A stretch of DNA of 64,000 nt from a virus (taxonomy: Duplodnaviria; Caudoviricetes). Shown in pieces: positions 35,333 to 64,000 of this stretch (positions within the stretch are counted from its first letter, which is position 1; every line of letters begins with the position of its first letter). The notes under the pieces are model-generated. The model searched no databases. It saw nothing but the letters and a program-made list of their open reading frames with translations, and had not been told where the DNA came from. The DNA is taken from the IMG/VR virus record IMGVR_UViG_3300037297_000386. One strand, given 5' to 3'. The position numbers were made by a program, and so were the translations under genes.

Positions 35333-35974
35333 CTACATTAATCTGGTAAATGGTTGCATTAATTGAGACGGATCAGCTACAAAACTCATAAGTCCTTCTA
35401 AATTTTCATCAGTAAAATCTTTGCTTTCTGGAATTTCATGATTGTTAGTATCTTCTAGATATAACTGACCAGGCAATTTGGTTGTCCCAGACGTTTGCGC
35501 ATAAATATCTCCAATTTTTGTAAGTCCAACAGCCAATAATAGGAATTTGACTGCTTTCCACAGAATTTGTATTAACTTTGGTATTGCTCCAATAAGTTTT
35601 AATAATCCACCAAACCATGCTAGTTTAATAATATCATTTTCTGTAGCACCTACTGATGGTTTCAAAAGATTTTTAAGAAATCCGCCGATACCCTCTAATA
35701 AATCATTTTCTTGTATCTGTAGATTTGTGTTTGGAGCCCATCCCATAGCGTTATCTATTGCTTTTCCTAAATCCGAAAGACCGTATCCGAAAAAAGTAGC
35801 AATTTTCTCTAATATAAACACACCCCATCCAAGACCTGGGACAAAAGGAATCAAATATGTTATGATACGGAAGAAATTTTCACAGAATCCTTCGTTTTGG
35901 CGCCATACAGATTTTATGGTTTCACCTAGATCAGATAACTCCCATGCCCGTTTTGAAATAGCATTACCAGTCAT
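35333..35974 (-). CDS. Hydrophobic probable internal virion protein, 213 aa
   Basis: N-terminal ISKRA motif, two hydrophobic segments, IIKLAW motif. Confidence 0.55.
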   Translation of the reverse strand: MTGNAISKRAWELSDLGETIKSVWRQNEGFCENFFRIITYLIPFVPGLGWGVFILEKIATFFGYGLSDLGKAIDNAMGWAPNTNLQIQENDLLEGIGGFLKNLLKPSVGATENDIIKLAWFGGLLKLIGAIPKLIQILWKAVKFLLLAVGLTKIGDIYAQTSGTTKLPGQLYLEDTNNHEIPESKDFTDENLEGLMSFVADPSQLMQPFTRLM

Positions 35975-41003: not shown

Positions 41004-42335
41004 TTACTTATGCTTCTCTCTGAAAGCATTTGTAGCCCAGTCGTTAAACTGTTTAGTCTTGAAAATATTAGGAATATTATTTATATAAAAATCAGGATGT
41101 GTTCTGGCTATCTCGCCAGCCAAACGACGCATCTTGTTAAAAATTCTATCTTTAAATAAATATGTTTCAGGAATATTTTTAATTCTTTCTTTCTCAAATC
41201 TAATCAGATTGTTCCATAAATCAGGCAACATACTGTATATCTCCGGGCCTTGTTTATACAAATCAAACATTAATACTTCATGGGGATGACGTTTGATCGA
41301 TTCTGTAATTGCTTTGCCCATCCATTTCTTTAAATCATGTGGCCGACGTAATCCCCATTCAAAATATTTAATAGGATTATATTCTATTAAATTGTTCATA
41401 GCAATCTCTGTAGCACGTGGATCGCGCCCATCTCTTACTCTTTTATCCTTCCATATATCATTGCCACGCAGATATGTTTTAGGATAATGTTTCGCCAACC
41501 AAACGAGAGACCCACGCCCGTCAGCAGTTTCTCTCGTGCTTATTGACCTTTGTTTCGATTCTGCTTTTTTAAATCTTTCTGCATATGGAGAATCCTTTAT
41601 AGTATCATAAAACTCGGGGATTTCTTCGGATATCTTCTTCAATAATGACCTCATACGATAATGTAGAATGCCAGGAAATATATTACTTTTATCAGTTTCA
41701 GGTGTTTTCTTCAATTCATTGTCTATAGATTTTTCCCATAATTTTGGCAAAAGCTCTTTCATTCCTGGTCTATGGAAAAAAGCAAAAATATGTAATATAA
41801 GTGCTGTCTCTGGATCAGTATTAATCAAATTTTCAGCCGCTCTTTTCATCCATACAGGGTCATCTCCAGGTTTCCTTCTATACATTTCCCATTCAAAATA
41901 TTTTTCAGGCTCTTCTTCTACTATTTTATTAATAAGCTCTTTGGTCAATTTGGTATTAGTTGGATCTGATGCATAGCCTAAAAATGGATCGTGTCCTTTT
42001 AAATAAGCATATGGATAATTCTTGGCCACCCATTCAGGACTGCCAGCATTAGGATCTAACCAGGGTTGTTCGACATGTTCTACTCCAAAATCACTCTTTA
42101 ATTCCTCAACATTTTGATAAGATTCAGGAGCAATCATTTGTGGAATAGGTTGTTCTATTGGAATTGGTATAGCTGGAGCACCCCCTATATCCGGTTTTTC
42201 TTCTTCTAGACCCTCTAATTGTTCAGTTCTAGGATACGGCTTTAGTTGTTCAGTGACAGGTAAAGGTGGAGGGCTAATAATATCTAATATATTAGCCGCG
42301 AATTCAAACATTATTTCATCTCTAGTTTTGAGCAT
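41004..42335 (-). CDS. Hypothetical protein with two internal helical repeats, 443 aa
   Basis: W(V/L)AKxYPxxYLxG...PxKYFEW...WMxxA occurs twice. Confidence 0.7.
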   Translation of the reverse strand: MLKTRDEIMFEFAANILDIISPPPLPVTEQLKPYPRTEQLEGLEEEKPDIGGAPAIPIPIEQPIPQMIAPESYQNVEELKSDFGVEHVEQPWLDPNAGSPEWVAKNYPYAYLKGHDPFLGYASDPTNTKLTKELINKIVEEEPEKYFEWEMYRRKPGDDPVWMKRAAENLINTDPETALILHIFAFFHRPGMKELLPKLWEKSIDNELKKTPETDKSNIFPGILHYRMRSLLKKISEEIPEFYDTIKDSPYAERFKKAESKQRSISTRETADGRGSLVWLAKHYPKTYLRGNDIWKDKRVRDGRDPRATEIAMNNLIEYNPIKYFEWGLRRPHDLKKWMGKAITESIKRHPHEVLMFDLYKQGPEIYSMLPDLWNNLIRFEKERIKNIPETYLFKDRIFNKMRRLAGEIARTHPDFYINNIPNIFKTKQFNDWATNAFREKHK

Positions 42336-42585: not shown

Positions 42586-45500
42586 TTACTTCCAACCTAG
42601 TCCGTTCAATTGCGTAACTAAATTTGGTTCTACCACTGGATCTGCACTTGCAGTAACTTCCATAGCTTTTGTAGCTGCATCGGCGCCAACTACTGGTAAT
42701 TTACCAGACTTTTTGTTAGATTTCATACTAGCCACAATGCGCTTAGTCGACTCAAAAGCCGCATTGTCAAACTTCATAATTTCATCGACATATGTATCTA
42801 GGGCAACTCGACTTGGTTCTATCATACCTTTTTCTTGAGCCATAAGACCAAGATCATAAGCCCGACGTAGCTTTACTTTATACGTTTTGTCTTCAGCTTC
42901 TTTTTTCTTGCCAGCAAAATCTTTACTTAGATCAGCACCAAAACTTCCCGTGTCTGGACCTTGGCTCCAATATTTCTTCCAGTATGATGCTGCCGCCGAA
43001 TCTACTTTGCCTTCTGCTACTAGTTTATCTAAATCTTCTACTTTGAGTGCTCCCTTGACAAACTGCTCCTGTAATTTCATCGCTGCTTCACGCACATTGC
43101 GTGGGCCAGATTCAGCAACATCACGCATGGCATCATGAATTTCAGATATTGTCTCGACTTTTGCTTCATCAGTCTTAGTGTGGGTTAATTCAGTCATAGT
43201 GCCTTTTCCACCGGGATGAGCTTCAAAATAAGTTTTCTCTGTCGCATTTTCTGCTTTACCAAGATCAAGCTCATACTTTCCAAGTATCTTATCAGTTGCT
43301 TGTACAACTAACTCTTCACGAGCTCTTTTGCGTGCTTCCTTAAGAGAGGCTTCACTCTCAACAACCTCGTCATCAGCATAACTAGAAGAATCATTAATAA
43401 GATCCTCTAAACTATCATCAGTATCTACTTCGGTGACAACACAGTCATCGGCCGGCACACCACAGTCATGCGCTTGACCAGGAACTAATTTGGATCCACA
43501 CTGCTCACAAAACTGTCCATTACCCATAGCTTTTGCTAGCAAGGCTGCGCGATTTTCGGATCTAATTTTTAATGCATCTTCTAAAAGTTTTTGGGCTTCT
43601 TTTTTATCTTCCTTGTCGTTTTCATCTTTCTCTTCTTTCTTATCCTTATCGTCTTTATCCTTATCGTCTTTCTTATCTTTGTCTTTACCTTTCTCTTTTT
43701 GGAATTTCTCTAGACCAGGAGGAAGTTTACCAGCTTCTTTCTTCTCATATTTTTCATCCTCATTTTTAGCCTTCTCTTCTTTTTTATCTTTCTTGTCGTT
43801 TTCATCTTTCTCTTCTTTCTTATCTTTATTTTTCTTAGCCTCAAGAACCATAGAAGTTTCTTTAAGAATAGTTTGTGAGTCTTCCCATGCTTGTTCAGCT
43901 GCCTTAAGCAATCTTTCATTCACTTCACCATCCAGCGCTTCACTAATAAGGGCTAGTTCATCAGCTGACTCGTTCAGAAGAGATTCTACTTTTAGAACTT
44001 CTTCGCGAGAAGCCAATGCACCTTCCATTGGTGCCATCTCTGGCGTCTTTTCAGCAGCTTCACCCTTGGAGTCCTCATCGATATTAACATCAATATCAAC
44101 TAATTCTTCTTCCATACCTGAAGCTAGATCACGAATTTCAGCAATTTTTTCTTCCATAGCATTTAATGCTGAATCAATTTTACCTTGCGTCTCTTCTTTT
44201 GGCTGTTTAACTTCAACTGGCTTTTCGGAATCTTTAGGAGCTGTTTCTCCACCTTCTGAAGGAATAGGTTCTCCTAATTGATCTCCTATTGGAGCCATTT
44301 CACCACCTGCTCCACCTGCTCCACCTGCTAATGGATCTGTCATAGGAGGTTGGGCTCCCTTCAATAAATAAGCAACGCGATCGAATCCTTCAGAACGAAT
44401 ATACTTTATAACATCTCCGCCATATTCTCTGGAACTCAGGTAATCCCAATTCTCATCTATATCATCACCAAAAATTTCGGAGCCGGTAGCCGTCAAAATA
44501 AGCTTGCCACCAGCATAAATATCCCATCTAGAGGCACTTTTACATAGCTGTCCATCATGATCAGCAACTTTTGTAAATTTTGCGCTAAGCTTGGCACGAA
44601 GTAACTTTTTCTTAAGTTCCATATCGCCAGGAACAGTGCCATCTTTTCCGCCCATATCATACAATCCCTGAAGATGTTTGTCTTCATTATTGCGAACTTT
44701 CTCTGCCATTGGGTCTTTTTCATACTTTGGTTTTCCAGGAGTAGGCTCATTAACACCACCACCGCCTAACCAATAAGCTCGACGTTTCATTGCCCTTTCT
44801 TCTAATTTAGCTTTACTCAAGTTTAGTCCATTACGACCAGCGTCACGTAATTTTTCCTCATCGCCAGGGTGCAAACCTTCTGATCCTGTTTCTAATGGCT
44901 GACCTGTCATTTGTTTGTCTTCTTTATTTCGAATGCTTTCTGCATCCTCTTTTTCATACTTTGGTTTTCCAGGAGTAGGCTCATTAACGCCACCACCGCC
45001 TAACCAATAAGCTCTTCGTGCCTTTGCACGAGCACGCAATCTCGCAGAATTCATGTTGTTCTCCTCCTTAGAGACTTTTTTAAGTTCGTTTAATGATTTT
45101 TGCATACTTTCCACCTTGGATCGAAGGAGACGTAATTCTTCTAAATAAGCACCCTGCTTGTCTCCTTCTTTACTTGCATATCTTTCTGTTGGTATCCCAG
45201 ACAATGGTGTAGAAGTTGGCAGTCCTTCTACACCCTCTTCTGACATGGGGCTCCAACTTGGACCACCAGGAGTAGGTCTCATAGGTGGTATAGTCTCATC
45301 TTCTATTTTTTCAATCGATTTATCTTTACTGATCAATTTTGTAATTTCTGCTAATATTTCTGCTGCTGCTTTTTCAGCACCCGCCTCTTTCAGCTCTCTA
45401 TAAGTAGCTGTAAGTTGAGCAAGAGTTCTGGCTTTATCCTCGTCCATTTCAGCAGCTTTTTCTAAATTTTCACTTTGCATCAAACTACTAATTTTTATTC

Positions 45501-46368
45501 GTATCTCATTAACAGTATCAGCTAGACTTTGTAATTCAGTTGGGTTTACACATCTTTGGTGCGTAAGTTCATCTATTCTATCTTGCTTATTTTGCACATA
45601 AGTATTTAGACTAGCTATAATATTCCTTATTTTAGCCCTGCCATCAGCCCCATTAACAACTAAACTAAGTTCAATCGGTGACAGATCTAAATTAATTTCA
45701 CCATAATTCTTCCTAGCAAGAATACACGGACAATATTCTTTCTCTGTGACGGCCACATTCCCGCACTCAGTACACACAGACCGCCCAACTGCTGTTCCCA
45801 TAGAAACACAATTTGCGTATCCAGTCTCAACTTTGCGCGCCAAATCCGCATAATTCTTTTTATCTAATGCAAACAACGCATGAACACGCTTAAATTTTGG
45901 ATCATAATATGTATCAATAATTATCCCGCGGATTCCATCAACGCTATCCGAACGATGATCCTTGCAAAGTGGTTTTCCAATCCACAGTTTATATGCTTTG
46001 ATAAGTTCAGCTTCACTAAATATATCTCCATTGGCATTTTTATATGGCATTATATTATCTGTCGAAACCCATCTAACCGAATTTTTGCCACTTTTGTTTT
46101 TAAACTCTTCAAAAAACCCAGACACAGGCTTGCCGTTTTTATTCATATTCGGTTCGCCAGTCTCTTGATTTACCAAAGAAGCTTCAGCTGCATGCATAAT
46201 AACCGCATGTCCGTATAAAAAATCTTTAGCTTTTGGAGCAACTCTTCGTAATTTTTTGGCTAATTTAACAAATCTTTTTAATACCAATTCATCCTTAAGG
46301 GCCTGTTTTGGCGACAAAATATTTTTTTCGGAACTGAATGTTAAATTTTCACCAAATTTTTCAAGCAT
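42586..46368 (-). CDS. Prohead protease fused to a long scaffold/internal-protein region (~1260 aa)
   Basis: NANGDIF...KPLCKDH...GIIID...VSMGT...CTECG...YCPC...IELSLV..GAD is a HK97/herpes-type prohead protease. It is followed by coiled coils, K/D/E tracts, a Zn-ribbon and an AHP motif. Start moved to the ATG behind GAGGAG. Confidence 0.85.
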   Translation of the reverse strand: MLEKFGENLTFSSEKNILSPKQALKDELVLKRFVKLAKKLRRVAPKAKDFLYGHAVIMHAAEASLVNQETGEPNMNKNGKPVSGFFEEFKNKSGKNSVRWVSTDNIMPYKNANGDIFSEAELIKAYKLWIGKPLCKDHRSDSVDGIRGIIIDTYYDPKFKRVHALFALDKKNYADLARKVETGYANCVSMGTAVGRSVCTECGNVAVTEKEYCPCILARKNYGEINLDLSPIELSLVVNGADGRAKIRNIIASLNTYVQNKQDRIDELTHQRCVNPTELQSLADTVNEIRIKISSLMQSENLEKAAEMDEDKARTLAQLTATYRELKEAGAEKAAAEILAEITKLISKDKSIEKIEDETIPPMRPTPGGPSWSPMSEEGVEGLPTSTPLSGIPTERYASKEGDKQGAYLEELRLLRSKVESMQKSLNELKKVSKEENNMNSARLRARAKARRAYWLGGGGVNEPTPGKPKYEKEDAESIRNKEDKQMTGQPLETGSEGLHPGDEEKLRDAGRNGLNLSKAKLEERAMKRRAYWLGGGGVNEPTPGKPKYEKDPMAEKVRNNEDKHLQGLYDMGGKDGTVPGDMELKKKLLRAKLSAKFTKVADHDGQLCKSASRWDIYAGGKLILTATGSEIFGDDIDENWDYLSSREYGGDVIKYIRSEGFDRVAYLLKGAQPPMTDPLAGGAGGAGGEMAPIGDQLGEPIPSEGGETAPKDSEKPVEVKQPKEETQGKIDSALNAMEEKIAEIRDLASGMEEELVDIDVNIDEDSKGEAAEKTPEMAPMEGALASREEVLKVESLLNESADELALISEALDGEVNERLLKAAEQAWEDSQTILKETSMVLEAKKNKDKKEEKDENDKKDKKEEKAKNEDEKYEKKEAGKLPPGLEKFQKEKGKDKDKKDDKDKDDKDKKEEKDENDKEDKKEAQKLLEDALKIRSENRAALLAKAMGNGQFCEQCGSKLVPGQAHDCGVPADDCVVTEVDTDDSLEDLINDSSSYADDEVVESEASLKEARKRAREELVVQATDKILGKYELDLGKAENATEKTYFEAHPGGKGTMTELTHTKTDEAKVETISEIHDAMRDVAESGPRNVREAAMKLQEQFVKGALKVEDLDKLVAEGKVDSAAASYWKKYWSQGPDTGSFGADLSKDFAGKKKEAEDKTYKVKLRRAYDLGLMAQEKGMIEPSRVALDTYVDEIMKFDNAAFESTKRIVASMKSNKKSGKLPVVGADAATKAMEVTASADPVVEPNLVTQLNGLGWK
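44716..45014 (-). repeat. Two ~65-bp direct repeats in the scaffold region (44716-44780, 44949-45014)
   Basis: Both encode RRAYWLGGGGVNEPTPGKPKYEK. Confidence 0.9.
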
Positions 46369-46379
46369 TTTAAAACTCC

Positions 46380-47528
46380 TCAATCCTCTTCGTCTTCTTC
46401 AATACCTTCTAAAAATTTTTCTAATTCTTCTTCCATTTCATCAGACATTTCTACTTCTTCTGTGGAATCACATTCATCATTACTATCTTCTGCATCTATT
46501 GCTTTTTCATCGTCAGAATTAGCATCAAAAAAATCTAAAGTATTTTGACCTTCATCATGTTTAACGGCATCGACAATATTGTTAAACATTTCCTCTAAAT
46601 CTTTTTTAGATGGTTTCTTGCCGTGCATTAATTCAAAAAATCTCTTTTTGGCTGACTCTAAACCTTCTTGGGTTTTCTCCATGTCTTTAACTATCTTGTC
46701 TAATCCTAAATCTTTCGCCGAATCAGAAAAATCGAAATACCGTAGACGTCTAAAAAGTTCATTAAGACTTTTAATGGATTTTGAATTATTTTGATCGGCG
46801 TCATGTACAAAAATAATTAAATTCTTTTTAACCTTATCGTCTAATTTTTTAAGTGGGGCTTTTGGGCGGGCCGAAAATGATTTTAAAGCACGATCAACTT
46901 CAGAGGCAAGATCAAATTTTCTTTCTTGATCGAATTCATCAGCCATTTTTACCAACACAGATCTAATTTTATTCTCCACTACACTTGCCATTTTTCTCTC
47001 AGTTGATTTCATATCTTCCTGTGTAAACAACGGCTTCCTGTTTTCAACGACTTCGTGAGTTCCAGATAATGCTTCATCCAGATCTTTTTCTCTGCCAACA
47101 TGTTTTGGGTCAAATTCGAACTCTTCTTCTGATAATGTTGGTAAATCTGCTCCCTCTTCAAACCAACCACCTTCTTCTAATTTTCTAATCGTCTCTTTTG
47201 CAGCTTCTGGGACCATATATGTTTGTAATTCTGGAGTATCGCTAATATCACCAAGATTTAAGCCATCAGTCCATTTATCATGAATTTTTGGAATAGCTCG
47301 TACCATATTACCGCGCCCATCTGGGTCTGGCTCTAGAACTAAATCGAAACTGATGGCTTTTCCAAGGGACATAATAACTTCTGGCTTCAATCTAATGAGT
47401 TCAACCAGATCAATGTTCCCACCAGCTTCTTGTGCTAAAGATAAAATAAATTTATCCACTCTATTTGCCATTTTAAGTAAACCAGATTGATTAAGGCGAT
47501 CGGACAATTTGATCAATTTTACAAACAT
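46380..47528 (-). CDS. Helical-tag protein (two copies), 382 aa
   Basis: LIKLSDRLNQSGLLKMANRVD and LVKMADEFDQERKFDLASEVD. Confidence 0.75.
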   Translation of the reverse strand: MFVKLIKLSDRLNQSGLLKMANRVDKFILSLAQEAGGNIDLVELIRLKPEVIMSLGKAISFDLVLEPDPDGRGNMVRAIPKIHDKWTDGLNLGDISDTPELQTYMVPEAAKETIRKLEEGGWFEEGADLPTLSEEEFEFDPKHVGREKDLDEALSGTHEVVENRKPLFTQEDMKSTERKMASVVENKIRSVLVKMADEFDQERKFDLASEVDRALKSFSARPKAPLKKLDDKVKKNLIIFVHDADQNNSKSIKSLNELFRRLRYFDFSDSAKDLGLDKIVKDMEKTQEGLESAKKRFFELMHGKKPSKKDLEEMFNNIVDAVKHDEGQNTLDFFDANSDDEKAIDAEDSNDECDSTEEVEMSDEMEEELEKFLEGIEEDEED

Positions 47529-52774: not shown

Positions 52775-55700
52775 CTAATTTTCATCTTTTTTTATCATCC
52801 ATAACCATTTCTTTCCATCTGTATGAACTAATACATATTTCCCTTTCGCTTTTCCGCTCGATATCTCGAACTCAATTTTTTTATTTGACCAACTAATAGG
52901 TTTGTAATGTCCTTTTTGATAAACTGAAACTTTCCCTGCTCCATATTCCCCAGAAGGTATAGTGTAACTACCTGTATAACTCAAAGGATGTGGTTCTGTG
53001 ATAGTTGCAAGTAATCTTTCTCCCTTTGATGGTAATTTCGCTTTTGGTATCGCCCAACTTTCCAGCACATTATCTTTTTGCAGACGTAAATCAAAATGAG
53101 TCCCAGCTCTATGTGCCTCATGTTTTTGGATAACAAATATATTTTTTCCTTTACCATTTTCTTTTGGCTCTTTCGTTTCATTGAAATTCCGTTTCTTTTT
53201 ATAAACTGATAAAGGATCTTTTGATATTGACTTGGCTCTTTTTGATATATAACGAAAATTTGATTTAAAAGATTGTTTGTCTAATCTCTCAAGATCTTTA
53301 AAACTATTGGCTGTCAAAAAATCTAACAGATTAAATGGACCAACTTCAATGTCATTTGAAGCCAATATGTCTATCTTTTTAATATTTATTATTGGAAGAT
53401 ATGGAACAATATTTTGGACTCGTTTTAAATATAAATCATCAAAAGATGGAACTTGGACTTGCAAATAACCACGCAGTGTTACTAATCTAATCCATCCACG
53501 TTCGAAGGCAATATTATATATTTCATAATAATTCTTATCTGTAATTTCAGGTGCTCCTTCAAAAAGGTCTATATTTTCTGTAATAAATCGTGCATGTTCA
53601 AAAAATCCCACCGGATATAGTTTGTTATCTGGAGAAAGCCACCAAGCATCTGACGTATCCGCTCTTTTTGATATAAATGAATGTATAGATGCCCATTTAG
53701 ACGAAAACATATCATCAAATCCACTTGACGTAATAAACATAGAATATGGAATTTTTATTGGAAAAGCACCAGATGTGCCTTCCCATCTAGATGATGTTCT
53801 ATATTTCATAAATCTTTCTAAATCATCAAAACCACTTGACGCAACAAATATTGAATAAGGTATATTTAGTATATATCCTCCTGGCCAACTAATTTCTACC
53901 GATTTATATATACCTGGCAAATCAACAGATTGAACACGCCTAATATACTTATCTTCTTTAGCTGGGAATTCCAAATCCAAATTATTGTCTGCTTTTACAA
54001 TACGGATCCAATCATTATCAAATGCTATATCATATTCTCCACCAGACATATCTTTAAATAATTCCTTATGCTCATCAACAAAGATAGTATGACCAAATAC
54101 ATCAACTTCATATAATTGCCCGTCAGGAGAAAGCCACCACCCATATGGCAATTTTGCTCTCTTGGAAAGTACTTTTGGAAGTCGAAATGTTTTATTTTTT
54201 CCACAACCCCATATTTCTACTGAATCTATTAACCAGGAGCCTTCTGGAGTTTTTCCGTCATATTTAACTTTTGGAGGTTCCATATATTCTAAAGTTATAT
54301 GAGGACTGTAATTTTCAAAATGATCATCTACATCGATTCCAACGCTAACAAGCCCTTTTTTAAGTTCTTTGTGTAACTTCTTTAATTGTTCGGACAGTAT
54401 TTTTATTTTTGCCACTTTGCATCCATCCGAATGTTTAGTTGCAGGAAAATATGAAACTTTATTATCAAATTCAACAATAAAGGGCATCCATTTTTCTAAA
54501 ATTCTTTCTACAGTTTGTAAAAGCAGATTATGTTGATTATTTTTGACATTTTTACCAATATATAATAATGTTATATGCGGAACACTATTATCATGTTCTC
54601 CAAGTGAAGAAAACTGTTTTGATAAACTTTTTGGTAACACTGCAAATATACCAATTGGTTTCTTTTTAGCACATTTAGATAGCAAATATGTGCCTTCGCT
54701 ACTTGATTTATCTTTAAACAATGGTATAACTTTAGCTAATTCCTCTTGTTCGGATCCCTCTTTGTCGGAAATAATTTTTAACATTTTTTGATGTAAATCT
54801 TGGTCCATCAAAAATGATTGTAATTGTTTAAATGTCTCATAAGGATCTTTACTATTATATTCAAAAACGGTAATATATTGTGATTGATTTGCTTCATCAA
54901 CTATATATCTCAACCGAACAGAAGCATTATAGCCATGTTGTTCAGACACATGGGATCTGGCTTTATCAAGATAATTCCATAAAATATAAACATTTGGCAA
55001 TATTATGATTTTTCCTGACACTATACCATCTTCTTCAGCCGATGGAAACGGGAAAAAGCCAGGTAAATGTGATAATAATTCAAGAATATCATCTGGAATT
55101 CCTGATAAATATAATACAGATGCTACTATTTTATTTGTTTTTCCATTATCTCTAATCGACAAATGATCTCTTGCGTCATCTCCGCCATGACTAATGGGTT
55201 TTTTTATTCCACCATATTTTTCATGCAAAGCATACGGAACTCTAATGTTTCCGTTAGTTTTTAATGTTGTCGTATCTGTACGAACGCCATCACCTTTAAC
55301 TATTCCAGTAGTAAATCCATCAAAATCTTCATTTAAATCTTCGCACATTTCACGAAGTTCATTTCTCAAAGCATCAACATTAGTTTTTTTTGTATGAAAC
55401 TCCACATGATAACCAGTACCACCGCTTTCATAGATAGTAGGCTTGCCATATTTTGATTTAATCTTAGATGTAATTTTCTTTGCATATTTTAATGTTTTTT
55501 CCTTAGAAAAATTACCATGAACATCTAAATCAACAAATCCTAAATCTGTTTTAGATTCAATTACTCTATGAATTGATACCACACGACGATCTACCCAATA
55601 ATTATAATCTTTATTATCAGAAATTATTATCCTTTTATCATTATGATTTCGTTTGAGCACATTTTGGTTTTTACCTGTACCTATAAATAACATTACAGGT

Positions 55701-58700
55701 TTACCTTTTATTTCTGACATTATTTTTGATTTATTTTTTATATAATGATCGCGTATCTGTCTGCGAGTTAATTTTCTATCTTTATCTATCAGCACTTCAT
55801 CCCACTTTGGATCATTTTTTTCTTTTTCGTATTTACCGTCCTCTGATTCTTTTTCAGCACATTTAGATATAAATCTAGCCTCTTTTATCATTGACACAAT
55901 AGGTTCCTTGTACTCATGAGTTTTTTCGTCATATATGTTTTGAGCATCAAATGATTCCAGAAAATGTATTACATCTTCTCTAGATAGTTCTATATTGTGA
56001 GTTGCAGCTTGTGTTTGCCATATCTGAAGTTCTTTATTTATTTGTCCTATCCACTTACCTGGACGTCTATTAAATAAATTTTGCAGATCAAATCCACTAA
56101 TCAAAGGAACTAACGCCGTAGTTGTGGGAACTTTTTCAAATTGGCGTGTAAGATAATCATATCCTTCCATAGGAAAAGTTGGTAGCCATCCTCCTTTATG
56201 AGCTGCGGCATCGGCTAAAGCCACTTGCAAAGCACGTTTCCAGTCATCACCAAATTCTTGTGTAAGTTTCAAAATATTTCTTATTGCTTTTGCTGTAATC
56301 TTAGACGCTTTATCTGGATCTAAATCTACACGTCTAGCGGCATCAATTAAACTTTGTACACGCTTTATATCTTTACCTTTTGTTCCTTTAAGTTTGGTTA
56401 AAATATATTGAGCCGCTTGTATGCTGGAACGTTCATGCCCATGATATGTATTAACAAGTTTGTCTCCCATCTCTTTGACGCCTTGTACGGTAGGATCCAA
56501 TTTTCCAACATCGTGTAATAAAGTGGCCCAATTAAGTATATATCTATCAGCCTTATTTAAATCTTCATTTTTTGTAATTTCATAAATATTATCTAAGGCT
56601 TCCATTAAATGACCCCAAACATTAAATTCATGATGTGGGTTGTTTTGATCTAACTCCCATTCAGAATATTCATCTGGTAGTTGTAGAATTTCAGACCTAT
56701 ACCCTAAATCTTTAATTAATTCGAGGGCTTCACGCGGGCTACGATTCTCACTCATTATTTTTGATAATTCTTCTTGTCTACGTTCCCATGTAATCTTATT
56801 TCTAAATGCTTCCTGAACATCTTTATTTTTAGCTGCTGAGATTATTTCAGGATCTATTTTAAAATCAGGATATCTGTTAGCGAATCTTATTGCCCTTAAC
56901 ACACGTAATGGGTCGTCCAAAAATATTTGTTTAGCATCTATAAGTCTACCAACTTCTTTTTGTTGTTCTTCTGTGACAGTTTTTGGAGTTCGTAATATTT
57001 TATTTTTAATATCGTATATTCCTTGACCAGTAAAATCTTCTATCTTATTAGTATGTATATTATAAAATAAAGAATTAATTGTTAAATCTCTTCTAAATGC
57101 ATCTTTTATAGGAGAATCGGTAATAGTTACTATTGGTTTTCTTGATTCTTCATCATATTCTTCATCTCGCAAATTAACAACATCTATTGATTCTCCAAGC
57201 ATATGTATAACTGCTGTTTCTAAATGTTTTCCCTGTTCTGGTTTAGCAGGAATTAAACCAGCAGTAATATCAATATTATGGATACGTGCATAACGATTAA
57301 TATAATCGACGAATTCTTTACCAGTCATATTATCTATGGCTATATCAATATCTTTGGATTGCCGACCCATTAATTTATCTCGCACCCATCCACCAGCAAC
57401 TCTAATTGTAGTGCCAAGATTAAATTCGTCTACAGCAGATTTTAAAATATTGAAAATTTTTCTTTCCGTAGATGTAAGATTTATTGTATCATTAGCATAC
57501 TTAAGACGTTTCGAAATGTATGCCTTCGGATATTCCCAAAAACTAGGTTTATTACCTATCTCAGAAATATCAAATTGATGCCTCCAGAATTGTCCTCTTT
57601 CTTTATTAATTCGGTGCTCTTCCTTGGTCTTTTCTGATATAGATAGTTCTTTTTCTTTGTCAAAATCAGCTACCATTTTTTTAGCTTCTGGAATTATATC
57701 TTGTATTGCTTCTCTAATAACAGGGCTGGATTTTGCCAAATTCAAAATTTCAATTGGATTGTTTTTAAGTATATTTATAGCAGCTGTGTCAATAGCATGC
57801 TTAAACTCATCCTCTAAAAACAAACCAGAATTAAAATAAAAAGATGGGTTGAAATCTAATAAACGTAATAAGGCGTCTTGATTTACATCTTTTAATTCTG
57901 GCCTACGATAATATTTAAGAACAAAATATTCCTGCGGATGCAACATACTTAATTTAGTAGCTTGTGCAAGAATTAGATGAGGAAATTTTTCCATCAATTT
58001 TTTGTTATTTAAAAATGTACTTGGTTGGATAGCAAGGGCTTCCTCATCAGTATCTGGAAATATATTATTAGCGGCATTCTTATCTCTTAATGAAATTGGT
58101 TTTTCTGGATCATATTTAAACCATTCTGGTTGTTCAAATTCTATTTTATTTGGATCTTTAATGTTATGAGCAGCGCCAGCACTTTCTTCTAAATCTAGAA
58201 TGAGTGATTTTTCAAACCAATTTCCTAACCCATCTTCTTTTCCAAATCCCATATCTAATACTAATTCATCTTCACTATCTGCAATTCCCTGCCCATCAAA
58301 AGACTCATATTGAATAATGCCAAGTTTGTTTATCAAGTCCTCTGGAGGGTTAGAATACAAAAAATCTGCAAATATATTTTGTATTTGTTCATCTTCTATC
58401 GCTGAATAAATTGATGCAAAACGCTGGCGTGAATGTTCACGTACAGCTAATACCGCATCTTCATCAAATCGTGCAGACTCTACACCTACATGTACACACC
58501 CATTACCTTGTTCGATTAATGGTTTACGAAAAGTAACTGGTAGGGCAGGATTATCTGAAACAGCTTTAACTACAGCAGATATATCATATAAATCAGCGCC
58601 AGCTATGTCCAATGCTCTTCCTTTCAGATGTGAATACGGATTATTTGTTTCGGGAGGCCCAACAATATAACCATAATGTCTTTTTAATAACCTTGAAACT

Positions 58701-60544
58701 TGTCGCCAGACGCGCATATCGGATCTTAAATCTTGCGGAATTGTTTTTCCCGTAGCTTTTTTCCAGTAATGATTTAAAATATTTTTTTGGTCTTCTGGGG
58801 TTCTAACGCCTGAAGTCATTACTGCAGTTTCTGGCAAAAATGGTTTTAATGTTTTCCAGGCATTAAGTAGTAACTGATTAACTTTCGCTCTTGGAATCAT
58901 TAATATGCGTCTGTCTTCTTGTGAAATATTGATCAATTGTTTGTTCGGTTGGTTTATTCCCGATCTTAAATTATCGACCCAAACAATATCCGCCGGAGTT
59001 AATTCGGCACGTTTAGATATTAGTGGCTTAATATTTTGTTGAATAACACGTGCAATTTGTGGATTTTGTATTTGTATTAATTTTAAAACATAATCGTTTA
59101 TATTAGGCATACTAACGCTTCTAGCTAATACAATATGAACCACATTGTTTGCTACTCCTTCTTTATAAGGTGGTTGCATTAACTGTATCGATTCAGGAAA
59201 AATATTTGATACATATATCACGCGCTCACTAATAAGATTTAAATTAGGCCCACTAATATCAAATGCTATTCCTTCTTGATGAGCTGATTCTCCTGGCTCA
59301 GCAACGTCCGGACGATCAAACCCATCAGGTACAGTTCCAGCGACCATTATTCTGGATATTTTATTCAAAATATATTTATCCAAACGACTAAATGCTGTAC
59401 GATTAATCGATTTATTATATAATCGTTCAATTCTCCACGGATTTATTCTTTGTTCTATACCAAATGTTTTATGGAAATATCCTTCATATATTTTAGTATT
59501 CCATCTATTGTGCCACTTATGTCCGTCAAATACACCCCAACTTCTCCAATATTCTAATAATATTCTGGCTTGTTCGTGTTCATCCCTATAAACACTAGTA
59601 ATTGTAGAACCTGGTGGCAAAAATGGTGCTATAATTCTCCAAGCTATTTTAATACTTGGGTCATCAAATACGACATTTTTTCCTATATTGTTTACATTTA
59701 AATCTATATCAACTTGTGTCAATAGATTTTGAATATCAGTGGGATCCGAATATGGAATTGGCTGCTCTTCTTGTTGAATTGCTGGAGAAGCAGACATTGG
59801 TAGATCATCAGCCCTACAACTAATTGTGGCTTTTTTCTTTTTTCCCTCGTGTTTTTCAACCAATTCTGGATCAAGATACTGGTTTTTCAATGTAGATGCT
59901 TCGTGTCCAACTATTTCAGCAACTTCATTCAATGCATCTTTAAAATCTTTCTTTTTGAGCATTTCTTTCATCAAACGATTTGCATGAAATCCACGTAAAT
60001 CTTTCGCACTAATATCAAATTTAGAAAGATAGCGGTTAACTGCTCTGTCCCAAATCTTTTTACCATCGATTTCAAATATAAAATCGTCAGACTTTTTGCC
60101 TTTCATTAAATCCCGAATGACTTTTATTACTTTACTGTTTTCAAGGACAACATTTTGTTCAATTGCACCTTTTCCGGGAAAGTCAAACGTCATTTTATTG
60201 CCTTTCCCTTTTACATGTTTCACTTTAAGAGTAGACGCCCCAAATGTTCCTTCTTTAGCAGAATCCTCATTTCCGATACGCATAGCAGTATCGTCCATAA
60301 TGCCGACTATAGCAGCAATGGCACGAGTACGGTCATCGTCAGAGTTTAAATCTTTTTCATATTGTTTACGAACTTTCTTCAATTCTTTTTCAAGTTTCTT
60401 CAGTTTTTCTATCTTCTCATTCCACCGCTTTTTAATATGATCTTCTTTGTATTTATAAATAGTTCCGCCACTCTCACTTTTCTCTTTTTTTTCATACGCA
60501 GGCTTATCAGACACAACCTTGGCTCTTTTACTTATTTGTCTCAT
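52775..60544 (-). CDS. Multi-enzyme polyprotein (~2589 aa): TopIB - M15 peptidase x2 - helical domain - CCA-adding enzyme/HD - LigD primase-polymerase - unknown - 2H phosphoesterase - WWLSPD repeat x2 - LigD 3'-phosphoesterase
   Basis: TopIB MRIGNE/FPGK/AKDLRGFH/VGH/NQY; M15 TSxxR...SxHxxGxAxD...VH twice; GGWVRD..DIDI, RRDLTIN, DDPLRVLR, LLHDVGK; FVDLD..SGGTGYH..IRVPY; PHITL twice; FVIQKHEAHRAGTHFDLRL..SWAIPK. Start set at the ATG behind AAGGA. Confidence 0.9.
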   Translation of the reverse strand: MRQISKRAKVVSDKPAYEKKEKSESGGTIYKYKEDHIKKRWNEKIEKLKKLEKELKKVRKQYEKDLNSDDDRTRAIAAIVGIMDDTAMRIGNEDSAKEGTFGASTLKVKHVKGKGNKMTFDFPGKGAIEQNVVLENSKVIKVIRDLMKGKKSDDFIFEIDGKKIWDRAVNRYLSKFDISAKDLRGFHANRLMKEMLKKKDFKDALNEVAEIVGHEASTLKNQYLDPELVEKHEGKKKKATISCRADDLPMSASPAIQQEEQPIPYSDPTDIQNLLTQVDIDLNVNNIGKNVVFDDPSIKIAWRIIAPFLPPGSTITSVYRDEHEQARILLEYWRSWGVFDGHKWHNRWNTKIYEGYFHKTFGIEQRINPWRIERLYNKSINRTAFSRLDKYILNKISRIMVAGTVPDGFDRPDVAEPGESAHQEGIAFDISGPNLNLISERVIYVSNIFPESIQLMQPPYKEGVANNVVHIVLARSVSMPNINDYVLKLIQIQNPQIARVIQQNIKPLISKRAELTPADIVWVDNLRSGINQPNKQLINISQEDRRILMIPRAKVNQLLLNAWKTLKPFLPETAVMTSGVRTPEDQKNILNHYWKKATGKTIPQDLRSDMRVWRQVSRLLKRHYGYIVGPPETNNPYSHLKGRALDIAGADLYDISAVVKAVSDNPALPVTFRKPLIEQGNGCVHVGVESARFDEDAVLAVREHSRQRFASIYSAIEDEQIQNIFADFLYSNPPEDLINKLGIIQYESFDGQGIADSEDELVLDMGFGKEDGLGNWFEKSLILDLEESAGAAHNIKDPNKIEFEQPEWFKYDPEKPISLRDKNAANNIFPDTDEEALAIQPSTFLNNKKLMEKFPHLILAQATKLSMLHPQEYFVLKYYRRPELKDVNQDALLRLLDFNPSFYFNSGLFLEDEFKHAIDTAAINILKNNPIEILNLAKSSPVIREAIQDIIPEAKKMVADFDKEKELSISEKTKEEHRINKERGQFWRHQFDISEIGNKPSFWEYPKAYISKRLKYANDTINLTSTERKIFNILKSAVDEFNLGTTIRVAGGWVRDKLMGRQSKDIDIAIDNMTGKEFVDYINRYARIHNIDITAGLIPAKPEQGKHLETAVIHMLGESIDVVNLRDEEYDEESRKPIVTITDSPIKDAFRRDLTINSLFYNIHTNKIEDFTGQGIYDIKNKILRTPKTVTEEQQKEVGRLIDAKQIFLDDPLRVLRAIRFANRYPDFKIDPEIISAAKNKDVQEAFRNKITWERRQEELSKIMSENRSPREALELIKDLGYRSEILQLPDEYSEWELDQNNPHHEFNVWGHLMEALDNIYEITKNEDLNKADRYILNWATLLHDVGKLDPTVQGVKEMGDKLVNTYHGHERSSIQAAQYILTKLKGTKGKDIKRVQSLIDAARRVDLDPDKASKITAKAIRNILKLTQEFGDDWKRALQVALADAAAHKGGWLPTFPMEGYDYLTRQFEKVPTTTALVPLISGFDLQNLFNRRPGKWIGQINKELQIWQTQAATHNIELSREDVIHFLESFDAQNIYDEKTHEYKEPIVSMIKEARFISKCAEKESEDGKYEKEKNDPKWDEVLIDKDRKLTRRQIRDHYIKNKSKIMSEIKGKPVMLFIGTGKNQNVLKRNHNDKRIIISDNKDYNYWVDRRVVSIHRVIESKTDLGFVDLDVHGNFSKEKTLKYAKKITSKIKSKYGKPTIYESGGTGYHVEFHTKKTNVDALRNELREMCEDLNEDFDGFTTGIVKGDGVRTDTTTLKTNGNIRVPYALHEKYGGIKKPISHGGDDARDHLSIRDNGKTNKIVASVLYLSGIPDDILELLSHLPGFFPFPSAEEDGIVSGKIIILPNVYILWNYLDKARSHVSEQHGYNASVRLRYIVDEANQSQYITVFEYNSKDPYETFKQLQSFLMDQDLHQKMLKIISDKEGSEQEELAKVIPLFKDKSSSEGTYLLSKCAKKKPIGIFAVLPKSLSKQFSSLGEHDNSVPHITLLYIGKNVKNNQHNLLLQTVERILEKWMPFIVEFDNKVSYFPATKHSDGCKVAKIKILSEQLKKLHKELKKGLVSVGIDVDDHFENYSPHITLEYMEPPKVKYDGKTPEGSWLIDSVEIWGCGKNKTFRLPKVLSKRAKLPYGWWLSPDGQLYEVDVFGHTIFVDEHKELFKDMSGGEYDIAFDNDWIRIVKADNNLDLEFPAKEDKYIRRVQSVDLPGIYKSVEISWPGGYILNIPYSIFVASSGFDDLERFMKYRTSSRWEGTSGAFPIKIPYSMFITSSGFDDMFSSKWASIHSFISKRADTSDAWWLSPDNKLYPVGFFEHARFITENIDLFEGAPEITDKNYYEIYNIAFERGWIRLVTLRGYLQVQVPSFDDLYLKRVQNIVPYLPIINIKKIDILASNDIEVGPFNLLDFLTANSFKDLERLDKQSFKSNFRYISKRAKSISKDPLSVYKKKRNFNETKEPKENGKGKNIFVIQKHEAHRAGTHFDLRLQKDNVLESWAIPKAKLPSKGERLLATITEPHPLSYTGSYTIPSGEYGAGKVSVYQKGHYKPISWSNKKIEFEISSGKAKGKYVLVHTDGKKWLWMIKKDEN

Positions 60545-60550
60545 GTTTAG

Positions 60551-60700
60551 ATCCTTTTTAAAGTTGTGATCAGCCAATAATGGTTGTAAGTTTTTATAAT
60601 AGCAGACTCGACGGAACCGATCTTTATCAATTAATCGTTTGCTCAATTTCTTGTTCATAATTGCCCACACCAAAGTCATATTTTAGTCTCTTTATTAAAT
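60551..60700 (-). pseudogene. Frameshifted HNH endonuclease C-terminal relic
   Basis: ...DFGVGNYEQEIEQTI / DKDRFRRVCYYKNLQPLLADHNFKK parallels GMTWDNYGRWHIDHII...KKVCNYTNLQPLWAEDNLKK of 21467..22351. Confidence 0.6.
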
Positions 60701-60962
60701 ATCCAATAAATCTCCGAATTTTTTGTGCCATAAGCTTTTGTGAATAACTCATGGTTTCTCCCAAGTCTTCACTTTCACGATATGTTAAACTTAATTTATC
60801 ATATATCTTTTTAATTGTGTCTATAACAGATTGAGCATGTGTTATATTTTTTCTAGACATAGATATCTCAAATTCCCTATTTAATGTCGTCAGGGCCTTT
60901 CGTATCGTATATTGATTATTATAGTCAATATACTTATCTATTTTTGTAAATAAATCTATCAT
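60627..60962 (-). CDS. Hypothetical protein, 111 aa (possibly the decayed N-terminal part of the HNH relic)
   Basis: Overlaps the portal stop; its C-terminus resembles a degenerate HNH segment. Confidence 0.4.
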   Translation of the reverse strand: MIDLFTKIDKYIDYNNQYTIRKALTTLNREFEISMSRKNITHAQSVIDTIKKIYDKLSLTYRESEDLGETMSYSQKLMAQKIRRFIGYLIKRLKYDFGVGNYEQEIEQTIN

Positions 60963-63900
60963 GGTTTAATTGGCAGTGGTGTCCCACCTCCTGGCGTTGT
61001 AGCCGGGCCTTTAACACCTAATTCGCCTCCACCAGGACCAGGAATTATTGGACCACCCATACCAGGAGGAGCGCCTAATGGTGATGGGGCTCCTGTTGGA
61101 GGACCCCCTAATGGCGGTAATCCGCCGCCCATTGGGCCACCTAAACCACCAGGTACCAATCCTGCACCAGGGATACCAGATTCCTCTGCTCCCGGCGTAC
61201 CAGGTAATGGTGTTTCAGTTGGTTCTATAATATCTTCATCAGCTTTAATAGCTCTCAAAGCGCCTAGTGTCATTCCTTGTAATATTACAGCTTCCTTAGC
61301 TGTTATGGCATTATATATCATCTCTTCTTTTATTAACCTACGTTCTTCTTCCATATTGAGACCTAAACTTCTATATAATGTTGTCTGAGAAACTTTATTA
61401 TTCTGTGCTAAATTGTTTAATACATTTATATAATTATCCATATCAAACAATATCATTCGATTCCATTCCACTTCTGGAACTATTAACTTTTTATCCCCAT
61501 CCTTATACTCATAAAACTCTTGTATTTCACTAATCGGAGCGAATATTTTTTTGGTTAGCCACTGCGCCATCATATTTCTAAATGATTCATATCGCTGTTT
61601 TAATACTTCCAACCCAACAGTCGCACTATTAAAAGATGCCCCTTCTTGTGTAACTACAGCCTTTGGAACCATCAAACCAAACAAAATATTATCTAAAATA
61701 AAATTCATATCTGGTGTAATATCGATAATAGCGCCACTGGCTCCAACACGTTCAACAGATATTCCTGCATGAGATATTATCTTAAAGTCTTTGTCGTATT
61801 GAGCACTGTTCCCTAATATTATTAATGACTTATGACGTTTAGTAACAAATAATCCTCCAGGAACAGTAAAACACCATACCTTTCCATTATATTTTGTTTT
61901 ATTAAGAGTAGCACATTTGGATTTTGGATTTTGTCTATACATTGGAAATCTTCCTTTAGATCCGTCGCTCCAATTTGTAATCCAGTATTCCTTACCTTGC
62001 CCATTTTTAGTTTTATATACACTAGGCGAATATCCAGCCAAAAATGCAAGTTCAAAAATATCATTCGCTAAATTTTCAGATATAGTACTATATTTAAAAC
62101 CACATGTATTATTTTTATTAACATATGTGGTTCCATCACCATTGTTCAATGCTTTTAATAATATTTTCATTTGTCGAGGAGAAATAGAATACACCCACCT
62201 AGGAATTCGTTTATTATGTGAATTGCATTTACCATTTTCACCTATTTCATTAAAAATATGTCTAACTAATTTAGCATCATACACAATACCTTTCCATATT
62301 GATTTATGTTTATTTTCAGAAAATCCAGAACCATTATTAATAATTCTAGACTTAACCGTTTTGTTAAAATATTTAGCGATTTTCGTTAAATTATTTTCCA
62401 TCGCAAGTTTTTCTTCAGTTTCTTCTTCTTGGTATAAATTAATACTATTTGGATATTTATTATTTATAATACAAACATATCCTTCACTAATAACATTGCC
62501 CAAAAACTCCAGATAATCATCTGTTTTTATTTCATGTCCACATACATTTGTATACTCAATTTCAGTGCCATTAAAATTAGTTACCGCTCTAAACCTATAA
62601 TTAGTTTTAGACATGTTTTTTGCTTTTATAAATTCCCAATCAGACCACCCATCTTTTAATTTTCTACTAACAAACATTCTATGATTCGGAGTAACCATAG
62701 CATCTACTTGCTGCCCATTAAAATGATACATTTCACCATTATAATCATATAAATGAGATTTTAACGGAACACGGTATTCTAATTTTTCAGTATCTTTGTT
62801 AAAACAGGCTATCTTGAAACCAGGTTTAATGCTAGCTCTATAAGACCCATCATCGTTTTTAGTATAATCCATTACTTCATTATATTTTTTAAATCCTTTA
62901 TTAGTCAAAACTTGTGTTTGTTCATCGTGACATTCAAATGTTTGTCTCCACTTTTCTAAATCATCACCAGTTGGATGATATTCACCCTCAGCTGTTCCTC
63001 CAACTTTTACGATAGTTATTGGATTTACAAGATTGTCAGCTTGTGCAAATTTAGAGTTTCCTTGAATAGTATACAAACCATTGCGACGAGTAATAAATAA
63101 ACCAGTTGGAACTTCATAACACCAGACTAATCCATCATAATTTATTTTATCTATATTAGCCCCACCATGATTTGGATTACCATATATTAATGGTTCTTCT
63201 CCGTAATTAGTATTAGACCACGTAATAATATATTCGGTTGACTTATTGCTAACATTAGATATCAATATATTTGGAGAAAACCCACATTTATACACAAGCT
63301 CGCTTACATCATCTGCTAACTGTTTAGATACAGTAGAATATTTATAAGCAACTGATTTATTTTTATATTTACTTTTTATAACAGTTCCATCTCCTGCTAA
63401 TAATGCATTTAATAAAACCTGTAAATGTTCCCTGTGTAATTTAAGTATCCAGCGAGGAATTCGTTTATTATGAGAAGTACAATTTTCTCCATCTCCTATT
63501 TCTTTTATAAATAGATTCGTTAATTCCTTATTACATATCTTTCCTTCCCAATATTCATGTGGAGAATGCCTATTGAATCCAGCACCACGAATTTTCGTGT
63601 AATTATTACAATATAAACCTAAACTATTTGCAAAATTATTTGTACATTTAAATATTTTATCATAGTATTTTGACCTTGTTTCTTGCCCAATGATTATTTT
63701 GTTATCCGATCTTTTACCATAAATATAATTTTTATATATACAACCTTCGCTTAATAAATATCCTAAGAATTCCATATAACTGTTGGTAGAAATTTTCGAA
63801 TCAAATATTTCTATGGTGTCTCTTTTTTCTCCAATCCAATCTGCATGTGTTTTAAAACGATAATAACGCGATTTAGATATATTTTTGGCCAACTCAAAAT

Positions 63901-64000
63901 TCCAATCGGTCCAATTATTTTTAATTTTACTCGTAACCCACATACGATGTTCTGGGGTTACACATATATCCACCTTTTTGCCATTAAAATGGTACATTTC
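60959..64000 (-). CDS. Portal protein (5' part outside window) with two inteins and a Pro/Gly-rich C-tail
   Basis: Extein SKFAQADNLVNP...WRQTFE / SAQYDKDFKI...GLMVP...FNSATVGLEVLKQRY...WLTKKIFAPI looks like a portal core; the position upstream of the protease and MCP fits. Confidence 0.75.
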   Translation of the reverse strand, partial: EMYHFNGKKVDICVTPEHRMWVTSKIKNNWTDWNFELAKNISKSRYYRFKTHADWIGEKRDTIEIFDSKISTNSYMEFLGYLLSEGCIYKNYIYGKRSDNKIIIGQETRSKYYDKIFKCTNNFANSLGLYCNNYTKIRGAGFNRHSPHEYWEGKICNKELTNLFIKEIGDGENCTSHNKRIPRWILKLHREHLQVLLNALLAGDGTVIKSKYKNKSVAYKYSTVSKQLADDVSELVYKCGFSPNILISNVSNKSTEYIITWSNTNYGEEPLIYGNPNHGGANIDKINYDGLVWCYEVPTGLFITRRNGLYTIQGNSKFAQADNLVNPITIVKVGGTAEGEYHPTGDDLEKWRQTFECHDEQTQVLTNKGFKKYNEVMDYTKNDDGSYRASIKPGFKIACFNKDTEKLEYRVPLKSHLYDYNGEMYHFNGQQVDAMVTPNHRMFVSRKLKDGWSDWEFIKAKNMSKTNYRFRAVTNFNGTEIEYTNVCGHEIKTDDYLEFLGNVISEGYVCIINNKYPNSINLYQEEETEEKLAMENNLTKIAKYFNKTVKSRIINNGSGFSENKHKSIWKGIVYDAKLVRHIFNEIGENGKCNSHNKRIPRWVYSISPRQMKILLKALNNGDGTTYVNKNNTCGFKYSTISENLANDIFELAFLAGYSPSVYKTKNGQGKEYWITNWSDGSKGRFPMYRQNPKSKCATLNKTKYNGKVWCFTVPGGLFVTKRHKSLIILGNSAQYDKDFKIISHAGISVERVGASGAIIDITPDMNFILDNILFGLMVPKAVVTQEGASFNSATVGLEVLKQRYESFRNMMAQWLTKKIFAPISEIQEFYEYKDGDKKLIVPEVEWNRMILFDMDNYINVLNNLAQNNKVSQTTLYRSLGLNMEEERRLIKEEMIYNAITAKEAVILQGMTLGALRAIKADEDIIEPTETPLPGTPGAEESGIPGAGLVPGGLGGPMGGGLPPLGGPPTGAPSPLGAPPGMGGPIIPGPGGGELGVKGPATTPGGGTPLPIKP
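61808..62932 (-). mobile_element. Intein 2 in portal (375 aa, LAGLIDADG-containing)
   Basis: Starts CHDEQTQVLTNKGF; VTPNHRM (block B); FLGNVISEG and LNNGDGT; ends KVWCFTVPGGLFVTKR...IILGN followed by Ser. Confidence 0.92.
63056..64000 (-). mobile_element. Intein 1 in portal (N-terminus outside window, LAGLIDADG-containing)
   Basis: VTPEHRM; FLGYLLSEG and LLAGDGT; ends VWCYEVPTGLFITRRNGLYTIQGN followed by Ser. Confidence 0.92.

Follow-up and report, generated by a model that had tools for sequence, protein, structure and literature searches.

A 64,000-nucleotide stretch of DNA from an uncultured giant tailed phage (virus record IMGVR_UViG_3300037297_000386; hereafter the window), part of a 162-kb virus record that is ~40% complete, carries on its minus strand a gene for one very long protein (52775..60544; 2589 aa). 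In this protein a 7-residue leader and eleven modules, at least eight of them enzymatic, follow one another as 12 segments bordered by copies or variants of the pentapeptide [IL]SKRA. On balance, and with modest confidence, we favor the interpretation that this chain belongs to the phage head module and is a cargo polyprotein built of modules, which a protease would release at [IL]SKRA. Our starting points are the identities of the domains, the enrichment, conservation and border position of the motif, the shuffling of modules among relatives, and the conserved order of the surrounding genes. We regard [IL]SKRA as a likely processing signal because it is a sharply defined pentapeptide, lies in flexible linkers at the points of module exchange, follows apparently disposable leaders, and is restricted to proteins of the head module. 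Proteolysis at the motif itself we consider highly probable.

The open reading frame (ORF) of the polyprotein extends from 52775 to 60679 (2634 codons). Its likely start codon is the ATG at 60544, since AAGGA sits 8 nt upstream of it, the start does not clash with the upstream 111-aa ORF (60627..60962), and a public gene call of 2589 aa begins at the identical position. The product would thus begin MRQ-ISKRA, as proposed by the first-pass annotation of this DNA, which a model had made from the letters and translations. An identical polyprotein is also recorded on a 312-kb contig, and the DNA comes from wetland and marsh metagenomes.

Within the polyprotein, the pattern [IL]S[KC][RC]A was found at 8 sites, compared to 0.01 expected from 5000 shuffles of the sequence. 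A relaxed pattern added the junctions ISLRD (aa 862) and LSIRD (aa 1840), each at the end of a domain. All nine motifs that the first-pass annotation had listed were at the positions it gave, eight fitting [IL]S[KC][RC]A and the ninth, ISKRL at 57517, being a variant outside that pattern; its view of the motif as a delimiter of modules held and now extends to the ISLRD and LSIRD junctions. The motif-bearing tails in both AlphaFold2 (AF2) models that were made, those of the WWLSPD and primase-polymerase modules described below, were low-confidence, disordered linkers (predicted local distance difference test, pLDDT, <50).

A search of 5.8 billion proteins returned 49 related proteins of 1450-3800 aa, one of which was this protein's own record. 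The motif was present in 46 of the 48 distinct metagenomic homologues, often directly after the first Met. Across 215 motif sites the composition was tightly constrained (I108/L93, S215, K202, R202, A196), with unconstrained flanks. The codons of the motif varied between sites, with both Ser codon families in use, indicating that selection acts on the peptide and not on the DNA; a DNA-level repeat or recombination signal was thereby ruled out. The ends of BLAST high-scoring segment pairs clustered at the motif, 23% of the starts and 19% of the ends falling within 5 aa of it compared to 2.7% and 2.2% for random placement, an excess of eight to nine times. Proteins split at the motif resolved into module families of narrow length (TopIB ~240 aa; M15 ~210-260; WWLSPD ~135; 2H ~174; 3'-phosphoesterase ~154; CCA ~541; ligase ~336; and others), which recurred in different orders and combinations. 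The exchange of modules exactly at the motif, and its conservation at their boundaries, were what the first-pass annotation had suggested looking for in homologues.

Two subfamilies could be distinguished, one built around TopIB-M15 and the other (subfamily B) around ligase, primase-polymerase and phosphoesterase together with DJ-1/PfpI and ASCH modules. Relatives in subfamily B carry all three LigD domains in one chain, with the ligase as the first module of the polyprotein. An ART-PolyVal domain was matched in two relatives, clearly in P0050 (65.9 bits) and weakly in P0016.

The same motif marks a small set of other proteins. In the 162 kb, the strict motif occurs in the polyprotein gene and in three other ORFs only. 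One encodes a 482-aa head-module protein (35964..37412, minus strand) with ISKRA at 36486..36500, where SKRA is invariant in 10 of 10 homologues; the motif lies in a gappy linker that joins an N-terminal part, hydrophobic and rich in Gly/Ala, to one with a peptidoglycan-binding-like motif, and the family has a second, variant site, [IVL]S[QVR]R[DQ], after the first. The next encodes a 213-aa protein (35333..35974, minus strand) that starts MTGNA-ISKRA, with the motif at 35945..35959. Among its homologues, 18 of 19 consist of a variable leader of 0-16 aa, [IL]SKRA (one starts MSKRA) and a conserved body, a layout that, judged from the alignment, corresponds to that of a propeptide that is cleaved off. 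In relatives, too, head-module genes that stand alone have a leader and the motif: a NUDIX hydrolase gene (L002:20629-21165) starts MYISKRA, and one for a 514-aa protein (L006:19449-20993) starts MKKFYLSKRA. The third ORF encodes a fibre-type protein (4367..10792) with LSKRA at aa 316 (9833..9847), in a well-aligned repeat region, where it is kept in 3 of 37 homologues. This poor conservation marks it as a chance match, and it serves as a negative control. Two relaxed motif matches in the portal protein may also be due to chance. We also observed a 110-aa gene in L006 that starts MMDRLSLSKRH, and a single, unexplained ISKRG at about aa 72 of gp27, the major head protein of Bacillus phage G (L001 23289-24137).

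Most of the modules between the motifs could be assigned to enzyme families. All lie on the minus strand and are given here from the N-terminus. The leader with the first motif, MRQISKR (ISKR/A; 60524..60544), has three residues ahead of the motif, and many homologues start M-x(1-12)-[IL]SKRA. Module 1 (59813..60523, ending ISCRA) is a type IB topoisomerase (TopIB; PF01028 2e-31, PDB 6z01 1e-17). Its Pfam match spans aa 86-277, and alignment to PDB TopIB chains places R134, K152, R229, H259 and Y268 in the expected motifs (MRIGNE, TLKVKH, DLRGF, VGHEA, KNQY), in agreement with the R/K/R/H/Y set reported in the first-pass annotation. Modules 2 (59009..59812, ending ISKRA) and 3 (58085..59008, with a C-terminal extension and ending in the variant ISLRD) are M15/LAS-type zinc peptidases. 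The hidden Markov model (HMM) match is weak (VanY 0.0019 for module 2), and the assignment draws on the signature SxxR..Q, H-x6-D and distal H, which is invariant among 11 homologous modules (alignment A1) and complete in both copies here. Module 4 (57506..58084; aa 866-1058, ending in the variant ISKRL) is an apparently helical segment of 193 aa with neither a Pfam nor an atlas match; a homologous part occurs in 15 proteins of the family.

Module 5 (55859..57505, ending ISKCA) is a class II CCA-type tRNA nucleotidyltransferase with an HD domain (PF01743 3e-25, PF01966 6e-4). A match to the tRNA nucleotidyltransferase family phrog_2244 (2.5e-42) covers aa 1092-1560, and the signatures GGWVRD, DID, RRD, DPLRVLRAIRF and HDVGK are in place; these motifs assign the class and are compatible with either CCA or poly(A)/A-adding specificity. 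Module 6 (55151..55858, ending in the variant LSIRD within a disordered tail) is a LigD-type primase-polymerase of the archaeo-eukaryotic primase kind. Its Pfam match is only 0.0027; its AF2 model (pLDDT 89.5) matched the LigD polymerase of M. tuberculosis (2r9l) in Foldseek with E 5e-11 and TM 0.73, and DLDxH, SGGxGxH and RxD are invariant across 28 primase-polymerase sequences (alignment A4). This is the commonest module of the family, occurring in 32 proteins. For module 7 (54671..55150; 160 aa, aa 1844-2003, ending in the variant LSKCA), with homologous modules in 8 proteins, a language-model feature score of 0.93 to DUF5677 clusters in the Atlas offers a lead only. Module 8 (54158..54670, ending LSKRA) is a LigT-like 2H phosphoesterase with two HIT motifs (PF13563, E 3e-12 to 2e-10). 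Its score against the Acb1 anti-CBASS family (PF23474; 1.5e-5, 25.2 bits) is under the cut-off of 27, and the generic 2H family scores higher.

Modules 9 (53663..54157) and 10 (53237..53662), both ending ISKRA, are the two copies of a ~135-aa module, the 'WWLSPD repeats' of the first-pass annotation (alignment A3; AF2 model of copy 1, pLDDT 79.8). Fold searches with it (Foldseek, VIA-align, AFDB, Atlas) gave a best PDB Z of 5.8, which is noise, and AFDB relatives that are all uncharacterised; PDB sequence and profile searches with the M15, WWLSPD and primase-polymerase segments likewise gave no match. The C-terminal module 11 (52778..53236) is a LigD 3'-phosphoesterase (PF13298 5e-22, PDB 3p43 1e-28) with its active-site His/Asp/Arg/Tyr set present (HEAH..HFDLR, EPHPLSY). 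Profile matches and motifs thus bear out the CCA/HD enzyme, the 2H phosphoesterase and the 3'-phosphoesterase of the first-pass annotation; the primase-polymerase that it named is upheld chiefly by structure and invariant residues, and its two M15 peptidases by the residues in alignment A1.

The genomic surroundings bear on which enzyme might do the cutting. A head maturation protease domain (45610..46272, minus strand; aa 38-258) forms part of a 1265-aa protease-scaffold protein (42586..46383). The domain matches phrog_18299 (1e-12) and is 34% identical to gp19 of Bacillus phage G, with DH, VSMG and ELSLV conserved and a zinc-ribbon insert. This gp19, the closest cultured relative of the protease, lies between the portal and capsid genes in phage G. 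The rest of the 1265-aa protein is acidic, coiled-coil and scaffold-like. The gene order terminase, portal, small gene, polyprotein, small genes, protease/scaffold is kept in four relatives from both subfamilies, and a polyprotein gene stands directly after the portal gene in five loci. The protease is 42-58% identical in L006 and L003, where it could be aligned; the match in L002 was confined to the C-terminal scaffold part. Also conserved, in the scaffold part, are three [KR]RRAY[WD]LG sites, with GGGGVNEPTPGKPKYEK repeats after two of them; all three are kept in L002 and two in the L003 part. That these [KR]-R-R-A-Y sites share the basic-Arg-Ala core of the polyprotein motif is suggestive only.

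In phages SPN3US, phiKZ and T4, short motifs are where the head protease cuts internal or ejection proteins (PMC10052503). The enzymes concerned, T4 gp21, phiKZ gp175 and SPN3US gp245, make the head protease of this phage, by analogy, the obvious candidate for the cutting enzyme, and we believe it is about as probable as all other enzymes taken together. The likeness to the internal proteins and Alt of T4, the inner body of phiKZ and the ejection proteins of SPN3US includes location in the head module, a short cut consensus, short N-terminal leaders and ejected cargo (PMC10052503). Here, too, the phage encodes a head maturation protease, and several head proteins have a common consensus at leader or domain borders. 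The protease here differs in being of the HK97/phage-G gp19 type and fused to a scaffold, and whereas the T4, phiKZ and SPN3US substrates mostly lose one propeptide, this family has up to a dozen enzymes per chain, swapped as cassettes.

The polyprotein also resembles the polyvalent proteins, which were predicted to be packaged and delivered with the DNA (Iyer, Burroughs, Anand, de Souza, Aravind 2017, PMC5512222). Like them, it is a giant multi-domain protein of unrelated DNA, RNA and wall enzymes encoded near head genes, and its 11 modules are within the 2-15 domains given for that class; unlike them, it has no MuF, MPTase, ART-PolyVal or other signature domain. In the text of that paper CCA enzymes and LigD are absent and a topoisomerase occurs once, and a term search of it found no fixed inter-domain motif or cassette grammar ('linker' is absent). 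The concept thus overlaps two known kinds, polyvalent proteins and protease-processed head cargo. What appears new is the motif itself, its use at cassette borders across a large family, and the LigD/TopIB/CCA cargo set; a literature search did not find ISKRA or LSKRA together with prohead or capsid.

Three further comparisons help to place the protein. Two modules are related, with intact catalytic motifs, to bacterial LigD, the nonhomologous end-joining protein of 3'-phosphoesterase, ligase and polymerase; unlike in LigD, these domains stand apart, with unrelated modules between them and the motif at their borders, and the ligase is a separate gene. That gene, for a stand-alone ATP-dependent DNA ligase (PF01068, 108 bits), lies at G000:C1:50465-51679, ~4-5 kb past the window end and upstream of the portal gene; in L002 and the P0016 contig the ligase gene is just before the terminase. 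Ku was not found in the 162 kb. Vaccinia carries a compact type IB topoisomerase in its virion. The TopIB described here is similarly compact, in a bacterial virus and as part of a polyprotein, and its carriage in the virion is presumed. Picorna-like and potyvirus polyproteins likewise come from a single ORF in which a short protease site recurs at each junction; here, by contrast, the virus is a tailed phage with dsDNA, the protease has its own gene, and accessory enzymes, not a replication core, make up the modules.

Several observations weigh against the release of packaged cargo by the head protease. Canonical [IL]SKRA stands at only five of the eleven junctions, the other six being ISCRA, ISLRD, ISKRL, ISKCA, LSIRD and LSKCA. 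Because an 81%-identical relative has ISCRA, ISLRD, ISQRI, ISKLA, LSLRD and ISKLA at the same six places, the departure from the canonical motif at these joints is a stable trait of this lineage; in many relatives the joint between TopIB and M15 has a degenerate form (ISIRA or ISSRA). With only five junctions canonical, some products of this polyprotein may stay fused. Some leaders before the motif have only 0-3 residues, an odd length for a propeptide that serves targeting. The pattern [IL]SxR[ADQSG] is found neither in the protein encoded at 41004..42335, a capsid protein only putatively since it has no homology match, nor in the protease-scaffold protein, whereas the capsid proteins of T4, phiKZ and SPN3US have the cargo motif. 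The sites of these phages (L/I-x-E in T4, A/S/G-x-E in phiKZ and SPN3US) end in Glu, and those here read I/L-S-K-R-A. About ten small genes downstream of the polyprotein include several that share a helical tag of ~28 aa, and an HMM built from seven of these tags found none in the polyproteins. The collection of phage GenBank records gave distant matches to the CCA and TopIB parts only, with no cultured phage having the polyprotein. When the protease domain was co-folded with a 51-aa linker, the score was 0.00, a result that we list here and that counts neither for nor against binding.

Some of these points would suit a different enzyme. The chain could be cut at the motif in the cytoplasm by a host protease or by a trypsin-like phage protease as found in a relative, in which case the polyprotein would be a device for equimolar expression and not virion cargo. 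The lack of the motif in the putative capsid protein and scaffold, and of the capsid tag in the polyprotein, counts in favor of this, and a small residue preceded by Lys-Arg is the kind of site that an enzyme of trypsin or kexin type would accept. There is also a precedent in Staphylococcus phage 80alpha, where the host protease Prp acts on the capsid and scaffold leaders. In the relative on a 481-kb contig, a gene for a Trypsin_2 serine protease with a signal-like N-terminus lies among the head-module genes (L003:17870-18565, 3e-11); we rejected it as a universal protease for the family, as it has no homologue in this ~40%-complete genome piece. Moreover, phages share the motif even where identity between their polyproteins is only 38-50%, as would be expected more readily of a phage enzyme inherited along with it than of diverse host enzymes. 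The conserved motif sites are all in the head module, between the portal and tail genes, and the polyprotein gene occupies the classical slot of packaged proteins in five loci. On this evidence we consider cutting by such an enzyme unlikely.

We give still less weight to the possibility that the motif is a docking or modification signal, for contact with scaffold, portal or chaperone, and not a cut site. The full-length chain would then act as a polyvalent protein like N4 vRNAP or P1 DarB, some polyvalent proteins being packaged uncut (PMC5512222). Multivalent repeats would lend avidity to docking, and several junctions have lost Arg without apparent harm. On the other hand, a variable leader followed by the motif and a conserved body, as in the 213-aa family, is what a removed propeptide looks like. 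The motif also coincides with the exact points of module exchange and, in many polyproteins, stands at the very N-terminus; a docking signal need not occur at every junction. M15 enzymes cleave the D-amino-acid peptide bonds of the cell wall, which counts against a role of such modules in processing the chain. Self-processing by the protein's own peptidase modules (M15/LAS here, with two M15 copies, and DJ-1/PfpI in relatives), although autoproteolysis by embedded peptidases was predicted for polyvalent proteins by Iyer et al. (PMC5512222), is very improbable: the family has no universal module of any kind, and hence no embedded protease common to all members, so that the enzyme likely acts in trans, and the motif is still found in subfamily B, which has no M15, and in the stand-alone 213-aa and 482-aa proteins.

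Returning to release of head cargo at [IL]SKRA, a reading that the first-pass annotation had already proposed and that the present results bear out in part, we envisage the following sequence of events. Each module would be a self-contained fold ending in a flexible linker that carries [IL]-S-K-R-A. A sequence-specific protease, most likely the phage's own scaffold-fused head maturation protease of the HK97/phage-G type, would recognise [IL]SKRA and cut at or beside it. Hints on the scissile bond conflict: Arg is the most constant basic position (ISLRD, ISQRD), yet ISKCA and ISKLA keep Ala and lose Arg. The chain would be loaded into the procapsid and then cut to give free modules, and the stand-alone head-module proteins would be cut at this signal too, behind a short leader that is discarded. 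If the cutting enzyme is active only in the procapsid, cleavage implies packaging; packaging and ejection of the pieces we judge somewhat probable.

The released TopIB, wall peptidases, CCA/HD enzyme, 2H phosphoesterase, LigD polymerase and 3'-phosphoesterase would travel with the DNA. At entry, peptidoglycan might be opened, DNA relaxed, and broken DNA ends and damaged tRNA or RNA 3' ends healed, the LigD polymerase and 3'-phosphoesterase acting with the separate ATP-dependent ligase in end healing. For the 2H phosphoesterase, opening of 2',3'-cyclic phosphate ends is one potential task and breakdown of cyclic-nucleotide signals a less likely one. Given the known activities of these domain families, a role in repair or counter-defence is plausible, although we hold it with some doubt. 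A more far-reaching version is that [IL]SKRA is a combined loading-and-release code shared by a giant-phage clade, in which the repeats let a lattice of scaffold-fused protease capture the chain and any module flanked by the motif becomes a plug-and-play cassette, so that a kit of LigD-like end joining, TopIB and tRNA/RNA 3'-end repair reverses damage from restriction, CRISPR and tRNA-targeting systems before phage expression. We offer this version as speculation and think it rather unlikely in full.

Should the motif prove to be a cut site, it would serve as a readable grammar by which the virion cargo of giant phages known only from metagenomes could be recognised. It would also offer a cassette system, already in use in nature, by which foreign enzymes could be loaded into capsids, and the head protease would stand out by a specificity that is both unusual and well defined. 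The make-up of the cargo suggests that in some phages DNA end joining and tRNA-end repair are served by enzymes that the phage itself brings. Packaged inhibitors such as P1 Dar and T4 IPI are known, and carried repair enzymes would stand alongside them as a pre-emptive answer to nuclease-based defences. The ~50 shuffled polyproteins also bear on the question of which modules come apart and which remain joined, with the consistently degenerate joint between TopIB and M15 as one example.

The portal gene directly upstream of the polyprotein gene (60959..64000, minus strand; phrog_16240, phrog_9232, PF14528) runs past the window end, continuing to ~65200 in genome terms. At 1413 aa its ORF is longer than those of four relatives (~617-670 aa in three, 1046 aa in the other). 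A LAGLIDADG_3 domain (2.5e-11) and a segment similar to a terminase PHROG lie within the ORF, which probably holds an intein or homing-endonuclease insertion. The gene at 51021-51953 encodes a 310-aa protein with a Dps/ferritin-like N-terminus (DUF5856 7.6e-8, phrog_858) and a weak HMG-box match; a regular expression detected one copy of the helical tag in it, and an earlier reader had counted two.

A separate 255-aa nucleotidyltransferase of the PolyA_pol type is encoded a few genes upstream of the terminase in three relatives (L002:1177-1944, L003:557-1324, L006:1-458). In an uncultured 485-kb phage (L004, LR745208.1; 11416-13002, 15721-17214), a 528-aa TopIB protein comes right after the portal, with the same zinc-ribbon-type protease downstream. 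Its N-terminal part is poorly characterised and appears HAD-like by eye. This phage lacks ISKRA, indicating that TopIB in the slot after the portal is more widespread than the motif.

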